In this document: piece by piece, positions 11,639 through 12,782 of the stretch
How positions within the stretch are numbered: position 1 is the first letter of the stretch
Layout of the letters: the number at the start of each line of letters is the position of its first letter
Assembly (NCBI RefSeq): GCF_001272835.1
Contig: NZ_CP010546.1
Coordinates: 362,809 to 394,808, forward strand
Origin: Mycoplasmoides pneumoniae FH
Lineage (GTDB): Bacteria > Bacillota_I > Bacilli_A > Mycoplasmatales > Mycoplasmoidaceae
Length of the DNA: 32,000 nt
Reading direction: 5' to 3'
Program-made: the position numbers and the translations under genes
The notes under the pieces: generated by a model
The model's input: the letters and a program-made list of their open reading frames with translations, nothing else
What the model was told of the DNA's origin: nothing
Databases searched by the model: none

Positions 11639-12782
11639 ATGGATTGAATACAAACAGCAGGTGCTGGTACTCAACTACCAGAGAACAACATTAAGATAGC
11701 CGTTTTTGGAATTGGTGGTGCTGGTAACAACATTATTGATGACATGTTGCGCATGCACCCCGAATTGCAAACGGCTAACGTCCAGTTCTTTGCTTTAAAC
11801 ACTGATTTACAGCACTTAAAAACAAAGCGCTATGTCCAAAATAAGGCTGTGATTCAGTTTGAAGAATCCAAGGGCTTAGGTGTTGGTGGTGATCCCCAAA
11901 AAGGTGCCGTTTTAGCACACCATTTTTTAGAGCAATTTCACAAACTTAGTGACAGCTTTGATTTCTGTATTTTAGTCGCTGGTTTTGGTAAGGGGACTGG
12001 TACTGGTGCTACCCCGGTTTTTAGTAAGTTTCTTAGCAACAAAGGGGTGTTAAATCTCTCGATTGTCAGTTACCCCGCAATGTGTGAAGGGTTAAAGGCA
12101 CGCGAAAAAGCAGCTAAAGGTTTAGAACGCTTAAACCAAGCGACTGACAGTTTTATGCTGTTCCGCAATGATCGCTGTACTGATGGCATTTACCAACTAG
12201 CAAACGTTGCCATTGTCAAAACAATTAAAAACATTATTGAACTAATTAATCTACCACTACAGCAAAACATTGATTTTGAAGACATTCGTTCTTTCTTTAA
12301 AAAACCAGCACAACGTTTAGAGAATGAAGCTAACTTGTTTCGCGTAACTAATACTTTTACTTTTAGCTTTAGACGCGCACAATACAATTGAGCACTTTAG
12401 CCACAAATTGAAAAACTTTGAGTATGAAGGTTTTTTTGACCATAAGGTAGAAGGGGCGCAAAAGGTAATTTTAAAGGTGTTAGTCAACCAAGGTTTATAT
12501 CCGCTTGATTTAACCCAAATTCAAGAGATTATTTGAGCCAAAATTGACAATCATAACCTAGAGGTACAACTTGGAGTTGACTTTACTGATGCCAACCCTT
12601 CAGTGCAACTGTTTTTCTTAATGGAGAAAAAGCAAGCAGTGTCCTCTGACTTTATTCAAAAACCAGCATTTATCTCAGTTAAAGAAGTAAATCAGAAACC
12701 GGCCAAACCGTTCCAAGTTTTGAATGATTTAAAGGAGCTGGGACTGAAATACGTCAAACAGCAAACCGGATTTAATTATTAG
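11639..12782 (+). pseudogene. ftsZ: ftsZ, with the reading frame broken by a 1-nt shift near 12368-12371. The N-terminal part is 11639..12400; the C-terminal part continues in the next frame to TAG 12780-12782.
   Basis: MDWIQTAG...IAVFGIGGAGNN...GFGKGTGTGATP...NIDFEDI are the FtsZ GTPase and T7-loop motifs. The track ORF ends ...FTFSFRRAQYN at TGA 12389-12391, then GCA CTT TAG. A stop-free 136-codon frame (DAHNTIEHFSHKLKNFEYEG...QQTGFNY) runs 12372-12782. The total span is 1144 nt (3n+1). Confidence 0.8.

Follow-up and report, generated by a model that had tools for sequence, protein, structure and literature searches.

A single inserted base breaks the gene ftsZ (MPN317) in Mycoplasmoides pneumoniae FH. 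The gene lies in a stretch of 32,000 nucleotides (contig NZ_CP010546.1, positions 362,809 to 394,808 of the forward strand), which we call the window and number from its first letter. In the FH lineage (type 2), ftsZ has gained one A behind codon 244, and the normal frame ends nine codons later. We regard the resulting allele as a probable lineage-specific loss of function (probability about 0.8). The FH gene would be a young pseudogene, and its loss would be tolerated.

We read the window with genetic code 4 (TGA = Trp); its long open reading frames (ORFs) contain many TGA codons. From ATG 11639, frame 0 translates as MDWIQ...GFGKGTGTGATP...QQNIDFEDI...FTFSFRRAQYNWAL and stops at TAG 12398-12400. 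Authentic FtsZ covers the first 244 residues, and the last nine, 245-253 (RRAQYNWAL), are junk read out of frame. In the +1 frame no stop occurs from 12348, behind TAA 12345-12347, up to TAG 12780-12782; from GAC 12372 onwards this frame encodes DAHNTIEHFSHKLKNFEYEG...KQQTGFNY. This 3' remainder encodes H9, S8, H10, S9, S10, the linker and the C-terminal tail helix (LKELGLKYV...FNY). The whole ftsZ span, 11639-12782, measures 1144 nt. An ORF list made with translation table 11 cuts both ftsZ pieces short at TGA codons. It ends the first piece at ...SFRRAQYN because table 11 treats TGA as a stop.

Comparing the DNA to that of five strains whose ftsZ encodes the 380-aa protein (loci L004-L008) pins the lesion to one base. 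The window reads ...AGCTTT-A-GACGCG... where the five strains read ...AGCTTTGACGCG...; in longer context, the intact strains have ...ACTTTTAGCTTTGACGCGC... and the window has ...ACTTTTAGCTTTAGACGCGC.... The inserted A, at 12371, lies outside any homopolymer run. Counted from the coordinate of the L33M SNP in MPN318, it would fall between about 376,754 and 376,755 of NC_000912.1. It is the sole gap across 7.1 kb aligned to these strains. Besides this gap, the same alignment separates the window from each of two type 2 strains by one single-nucleotide polymorphism (SNP). Without A12371, 244 and 136 codons add up to 380 and encode exactly the representative M. pneumoniae FtsZ (FTSZ_MYCPN, AAB96167.1 and others; exact look-up). 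The protein collection records this 380-aa string on 902 contigs, in 1763 index blocks. Both halves of the broken gene are 100% identical to the known protein, and therefore the pattern is not due to chance.

An earlier reading of the window, made from the sequence only, had recognized ftsZ with its motifs and both frames, placed the extra base at about 12368-12371 and counted 244 + 136 = 380 codons. Translation with table 4 and the exact protein match confirm the first of these claims. The DNA comparison narrows the second to 12371, and the third is exact.

FtsZ of M. genitalium is colinear through the site (FSFSFDSKDSIEQF), with 56% identity over 361 residues, and the alignment of the two proteins includes the C-terminal LKELG(L/M)KYVK motif. 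Judging from these comparisons, the ancestral state is an uninterrupted ftsZ. The locus has the marks of a pseudogene: close relatives carry an intact colinear orthologue, and a single indel explains the break.

Three other interpretations of the site were rejected. An alternative junction, ...FTFSL-DAHN..., is without a match in the protein collection; the correct junction is ...FSF-DAHN.... Phase variation was discarded because the site is no repeat tract. A compensating second indel was discarded as well, there being one gap only in 7.1 kb.

The insertion is not private to the window. Carriers of the inserted-A allele are the loci L002, L003 and L009-L013. The identical insertion occurs in LR214945.1 (GCA_900660465.1) of strain NCTC10119, which is the FH type strain (PMC4501435), and in LHPQ01000017.1 (GCA_001296525.1), the assembly of strain 2882. 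It also occurs in the Logan assemblies of SRR2132551, SRR2132552 and SRR2132556 and in that of run ERR949852. The 253-aa product is found by exact match in the protein collection as VEU57170.1, annotated as M. pneumoniae 'FtsZ'. The 124-aa downstream ORF matches VEU57169.1 exactly and is present on 11 contigs. The two entries belong to a record of 817,125 bp.

LHPQ00000000 is among the accessions of 23 isolates sequenced with Illumina at ~1500x (Lluch-Senar et al. 2015, PMC4559472). We assign the LHPQ01 assembly to strain 2882, as its variants indicate, for two reasons. It carries the frameshift that this study gives, among its isolates, for 2882 only, and its private SNP at 12921 (C to A) is the MPN318 L33M change of the study's variant table. 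All three SRR assemblies carry the SNP at 12921 and hence represent the same strain as LHPQ01.

Two positions in the MPN318 permease gene tell the carriers apart. Position 12921 is A (L33M) in 2882 and C in the window and all other strains; position 13927 is T in NCTC10119 and C in the window. The window is therefore identical to neither the 2882 nor the NCTC10119 record, and at least three non-identical genomes have the insertion. Over the flanking 20 kb, NCTC10119 and 2882 are each one SNP away from the window.

The frameshift has been recorded before. S8 Table of PMC4559472 lists it for MPN317 in 2 of 26 genomes, FH (CP002077.1) and 2882; the other 24 are without it. Variants were retained in that study only if seen by both read mapping and scaffold mapping. 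In its orthologue table, MPN317 is without an FH orthologue, and two locus tags are missing between MPNE_0368 and MPNE_0371. We take the status of FH CP002077.1 from this published table; the DNA that we read is that of NCTC10119 and 2882. The sequence-only reading had named M129 and FH side by side as references for an alignment. The two split: M129 is without the insertion, and FH has it, according to the table of PMC4559472 and the NCTC10119 copy.

In the library searched, no discussion of the FH ftsZ frameshift was found beyond the S8 Table entry of PMC4559472. The existing record consists of a '1' in a supplementary table, the split coding sequences (CDSs) in LR214945.1 and two unmatched FH locus tags. 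Going by these entries and the assemblies, the frameshift is genuine but already on record, without comment on its consequences.

If the extra base were a sequencing or assembly indel in this one assembly, ftsZ would be intact in the organism. The sequence-only reading had offered this explanation. Single-base indels are the commonest assembly error, and the 380-aa FtsZ is overwhelmingly the commoner form. However, the extra A (TTT-A-GAC) is not within a homopolymer. The same base appears in the NCTC10119 assembly, in the ~1500x Illumina assembly and several read-set assemblies of 2882, and in ERR949852. Elsewhere in the sequence the insertion carriers are not identical, and therefore they are not copies of one file. 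Moreover, the frameshift call of PMC4559472 needed both scaffold and read mapping. Independent assemblies and read sets on different platforms, together with the published variant table, thus leave almost no room for an error. On this evidence the sequencing-error explanation is effectively refuted, and the insertion is a real allele.

A few irregular records stand beside these results. At 19772-19780 and ~20080 (window ~22179 and ~22478), the 2882 draft (L009) has runs of N and a small gap. They fall in rpmA and the next gene and change the gene lengths called there: a product of 107 aa without a Pfam hit stands against one of 104 aa with Ribosomal_L27. These changes in L009 are assembly artefacts, not biology.

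The 90% cluster that contains FtsZ also holds aberrant forms of 365, 362, 142, 130 and 250 aa, all single-contig or partial records. P0007 (365 aa), P0008 (362 aa) and P0009 (142 aa) each come from a single Logan contig. In one of the three the C-terminus is frameshifted (...FQVLIKSV), another departs from the usual sequence behind GATPV, and the remaining one has a different N-terminus. These variants could be additional lesions of natural origin, junctions from a transposon library, or ends or gaps of assemblies. We did not accept them as a sign of recurrent ftsZ loss. A scan of the contig collection with the 244-aa N-fragment returned distant Desulfovibrio FtsZ only and no Mycoplasma locus; the M. 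pneumoniae representative genome is seemingly missing or masked at ftsZ in that collection.

What does the broken gene still encode? The intact M. pneumoniae protein is a divergent but genuine FtsZ. Whether intact or cut to 253 aa, the product matches Pfam PF00091 (Tubulin/FtsZ GTPase) at residues 19-180 (E = 2e-29), and phmmer matches 51 solved FtsZ sequences (best E = 6e-31). The G-box GFGKGTGTG falls on the invariant columns G115-G123 of a 42-sequence FtsZ alignment, in which N210, D212 and D215 are invariant as well. The T7 loop (NIDFED, 210-215) pairs in alignment with NVDFAD of Aquifex FtsZ and is kept in the truncated product. An AlphaFold2 (AF2) model of the intact protein has a mean predicted confidence (pLDDT) of 83.9 and a predicted template modelling score (pTM) of 0.82. 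The best Foldseek matches of this model are S. aureus FtsZ, with a template modelling (TM) score of 0.86 over ~322 columns.

Translation and the AF2 map together delimit the loss. The 253-aa product retains the GTPase domain, H7, the T7 loop, H8 and S7, and it loses H9, S8, H10, S9, S10 and the C-terminal tail. Only the +1 frame encodes the tail helix (357-366), which is conserved in M. genitalium. Thus the complete C-terminal subdomain (S7-H9-S8-H10-S9-S10) is present in the reconstructed 380 aa, not in the encoded product. The locus is an FtsZ gene, yet it encodes no complete FtsZ. The sequence-only reading had stated that the C-terminal subdomain and the tail would be lost. This holds for the tail and for H9 to S10; S7 is retained, so that not the whole subdomain disappears.

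Pfam FtsZ_C (PF12327) does not match residues 245-380 (12372-12782) even in the intact protein. AF2 nevertheless folds these residues as a normal FtsZ C-subdomain, and long (550-620 aa) Malacoplasma-like FtsZ homologues are likewise without an FtsZ_C match.

The C-terminal subdomain of FtsZ contributes to the longitudinal interface, and the tail is the part that binds membrane tethers. In other bacteria the C-terminal tail of FtsZ binds FtsA. The FH fragment would be unable to form the lower (T7 / C-subdomain) face of the protofilament or to be tethered to the membrane, and normal polymerisation would not be expected of it. These two deficits make a loss of function the most likely effect of the allele. 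The sequence-only reading had listed genuine pseudogenisation first, and the recurrence of the insertion and the intact relatives support that choice.

Such a loss would be tolerated if, in this wall-less gliding clade, adherent cells divide mainly by terminal-organelle motility, as M. genitalium suggests. In M. genitalium, ftsZ and the whole four-gene dcw cluster can be deleted in vitro (PMC8475190, PMC4766277). The ftsZ mutant doubles in 8.29 h compared to 8.38 h for the wild type (PMC8475190). Division of the mutant has been attributed to gliding motility, and the mutant is unable to give rise to non-adherent variants (PMC8475190, PMC4766277, PMC12957436). In M. pneumoniae M129, Lon holds the FtsZ protein at a very low level (PMC7737663), and ftsZ tolerates transposon insertions (PMC10920889).

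Several points weigh against a loss of function. FtsZ and FtsA are unquantified in the mass-spectrometry tables for all four strains, including 2882 (PMC4559472). From the allele itself we infer the absence of a full-length or C-terminal FtsZ product. The downstream frame is fully intact, without a second lesion, which would fit a recent event but would equally fit continued use. The dispensability of ftsZ by clean deletion comes from M. genitalium only, not from M. pneumoniae. Finally, strain 2882, recorded as a 1999 synovial-fluid isolate from Spain, lies 8 SNPs and 2 indels from FH and, given this distance, could derive from the laboratory strain.

The retained fragment might itself be active. 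It could be a capping or dominant-negative form of FtsZ, or it could bind GTP in a new role, and the allele would then change the function of ftsZ instead of abolishing it. Its GTPase domain and T7 loop are complete. It is also without the Lon degrons LGLKYV and FNY, mapped in the C-terminus of M129 FtsZ (PMC7737663), and might out-accumulate the wild-type protein. However, the cell has no intact FtsZ for the fragment to poison. An exposed, incomplete C-subdomain followed by nine junk residues would likely be a substrate of Lon quality control, as PMC7737663 suggests. Furthermore, three other strains have about four times as much dcw operon RNA as 2882 (PMC4559472). We therefore consider an active N-fragment unlikely.

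The two pieces might also work together. In a split gene, the 253-aa N-fragment and a separately started C-fragment (TTG 12408, 124 aa) would rebuild a working FtsZ. FtsZ N- and C-terminal domains are able to fold independently. The +1 frame has its first canonical start, TTG 12408, at a distance of 7 nt from the stop, so that termination-reinitiation is conceivable. The downstream frame is intact and is called as a gene on L002, L003 and L009-L013 and by the NCTC annotation. The position of the break speaks against this arrangement: it falls inside the C-terminal subdomain rather than between the domains and leaves S7 on the N-fragment and S8-S10 on the C-fragment. H9 (249-263) would be largely untranslated, for the 124-aa ORF starts at residue 257. 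The 124-aa fragment alone has no Pfam match, and TTG 12408 is without an evident ribosome-binding site. When 11400-13000 was scanned for promoters and terminators, promoter-like sites were fewer than in shuffles, and the junction had nothing; the scan therefore gives no support for an internal promoter that feeds the 3' fragment. Reconstitution from two fragments is thus very improbable.

Alternatively, the ribosome could repair the frame. Leaky or programmed +1 frameshifting at UUU-AGA-C would involve a pause on AGA and a shift to GAC, and some full-length FtsZ would be made. Skipping the inserted A would yield exactly wild-type FtsZ. AGA is rare, with 18 of the 8119 codons in the window's genes (2.2 per 1000) or ~6% of Arg codons. 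Wild-type FtsZ is already very scarce, so that even a small yield might matter. The heptamer UUU-AGA-C resembles the Ty1 site CUU-AGG-C.

The distribution of the site argues the other way. It is a new mutation of a single lineage, absent from hundreds of other genomes, every non-FH M. pneumoniae genome examined among them, and from M. genitalium. A site confined to one lineage is no evolved, conserved recoding signal. Codon-anticodon rules predict poor re-pairing of tRNA-Phe (anticodon GAA) on UUA. There is no Shine-Dalgarno-like stimulator upstream of the site (ACTTTTACTTTTAGCTTT), and the TTT-AGA codon pair also occurs once in an ordinary frame elsewhere in the window. The sequence-only reading had rated +1 recoding as less likely. 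It is indeed unsupported, the site existing in one lineage only, and we hold programmed or leaky frameshifting to be highly unlikely. If recoding occurred at all, it would be as incidental leakiness; the predicted junction peptide would be ...TFTFSFDAHNTIEHFSHK, also written VTNTFTFSFDAHNTIEHFSHK.

A loss of function in the FH lineage hence remains our preferred reading. The features on which the argument draws, together with the neighbouring genes of the operon, are collected in Table 1.

Table 1. Coordinates of the ftsZ pieces and neighbouring genes in the window, and secondary-structure elements of intact FtsZ.
Feature	Position	Strand	Remarks
ftsZ (MPN317) 5' fragment	11639..12400	+	253 codons + TAG 12398-12400, start ATG 11639; table-4 translation
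Inserted A, frameshifting mutation	12371	+	follows codon 244 (TTT, Phe) and precedes codon 245 (GAC, Asp) of the intact frame
ftsZ 3' remainder, +1 frame	12372..12782	+	136 codons + TAG 12780-12782; residues 245-380 of reference FtsZ
Downstream 124-aa ORF	12408..12782	+	TTG start, 7 nt past TAG; 'FtsZ' CDS in NCTC10119 record
mraZ	9030-9455	+	intact; table-4 ORF scan; Pfam MraZ on homologous loci
mraW/rsmH	9445-10371	+	intact; table-4 ORF scan; Pfam Methyltransf_5 on homologous loci
ftsA-like MPN316	10374-11633	+	intact; table-4 ORF scan
H7	residues 185-204		AF2 model
T7 loop	residues about 205-212		AF2 model
H8	residues 213-220		AF2 model
S7	residues 231-241		AF2 model
H9	residues 249-263		AF2 model
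S8	residues 275-282		AF2 model
H10	residues 291-302		AF2 model
S9	residues 308-315		AF2 model
S10	residues 321-330		AF2 model
Low-confidence linker	between S10 and tail helix		AF2 model
Tail helix (LKELGLKYV)	residues 357-366		AF2 model

The gene order is P65, HMW2, P41, P24, mraZ, mraW, ftsA-like, ftsZ, two amino-acid permeases, thyA, dhfr, nrdFIE and further genes. The terminal-organelle genes P65, HMW2, P41 and P24 lie directly upstream and are intact in the table-4 ORF scan. The genes from mraZ to ftsZ form a dcw operon of known structure, mraZ-mraW-ftsA-like-ftsZ (PMC7737663).

RNA-seq values for this operon are given in S11 Table of PMC4559472 (log2 CPKM, 2882 compared to three other strains). 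They are 5.3 vs 7.1-7.7 for mraZ, 4.5 vs 6.0-6.8 for mraW, 4.0 vs 5.2-6.2 for ftsA-like and 3.6 vs 4.2-5.8 for ftsZ. The lower RNA in 2882, roughly fourfold, affects the whole dcw operon (9030-12782), not ftsZ alone.

Codon usage was counted over 18 genes of the window (8119 codons). AGA and AGG occur 2.2 and 2.0 times per 1000 codons, compared to ~14 each for CGT and CGC. The same genes contain 32 in-frame TGA (Trp) codons; 16 of the genes end in TAA and 2 in TAG.

M. pneumoniae is a major human respiratory pathogen. FH, its type strain, serves worldwide as the standard type 2 reference, and genomic and cell-biological studies commonly use it for comparison. It is possible, although we consider it rather doubtful, that the FH lineage as a whole is a natural ftsZ-null M. 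pneumoniae that includes the type strain and the 1999 joint isolate. The origin of 2882 matters here. The possibilities are that an FH clone with a broken ftsZ circulates in people or that 2882 derives from a laboratory strain. Provided that the record of 2882 is correct, the allele persists in patients. With 2882 as a genuine clinical isolate, FtsZ would be dispensable in the species during human infection and not just in culture.

The consequences for work with FH would be practical. If ftsZ is indeed lost, the published FH phenotypes (morphology, division, adherence variation) would be those of an FtsZ-less cell. The work on M. genitalium predicts that an FtsZ-less strain cannot yield viable non-adherent variants. 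Orthologue tables lose ftsZ for FH, and experiments in FH on division or with FtsZ-targeting drugs would mislead. At the same time, FH and M129 are a ready-made pair, near-isogenic in this operon, for the role of FtsZ in a wall-less gliding bacterium.

One close relative of the FH allele is M129 ftsZ (MPN317, 380 aa, FTSZ_MYCPN). All 380 codons are identical once the A is removed, and the operon and the neighbours are the same. In contrast to M129, the extra A after codon 244 splits the FH frame into a 253-codon ORF and a +1 remainder. NCTC10119 (LR214945.1) and 2882 (LHPQ01) have the insertion at the same base, and the window is a member of this lineage.

Among split genes, the case resembles the pseudogenes arcA (mpn304/305) and the restriction enzyme genes mpn109-110 and mpn345-347 of M. 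pneumoniae, which are also split by frameshifts and have their fragments annotated as CDSs (PMC7737663). The arcA and restriction-gene splits were seen in an M129-based study (PMC7737663), whereas the ftsZ split is limited to the FH lineage and looks recent.

Like the +1 sites of prfB (CUU-UGA-C) and Ty1 (CUU-AGG-C), the ftsZ site has a possibly slow codon, here the rare AGA, behind a U-rich one, and the protein would be restored by a +1 shift. Unlike those sites, the ftsZ site is unconserved, lacks a stimulatory element, would re-pair poorly in the P site and is a mutation of a single lineage.

The ftsZ and dcw deletions of M. genitalium (Lluch-Senar 2010; Martinez-Torro 2021) likewise represent loss of FtsZ in a gliding, wall-less clade. 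Those deletions were constructed and their phenotypes measured, whereas the FH case is a spontaneous frameshift that left both halves in place and is known from sequence. The FH allele would be a natural counterpart of the M. genitalium knockout, neither a new mechanism nor a new kind of system.

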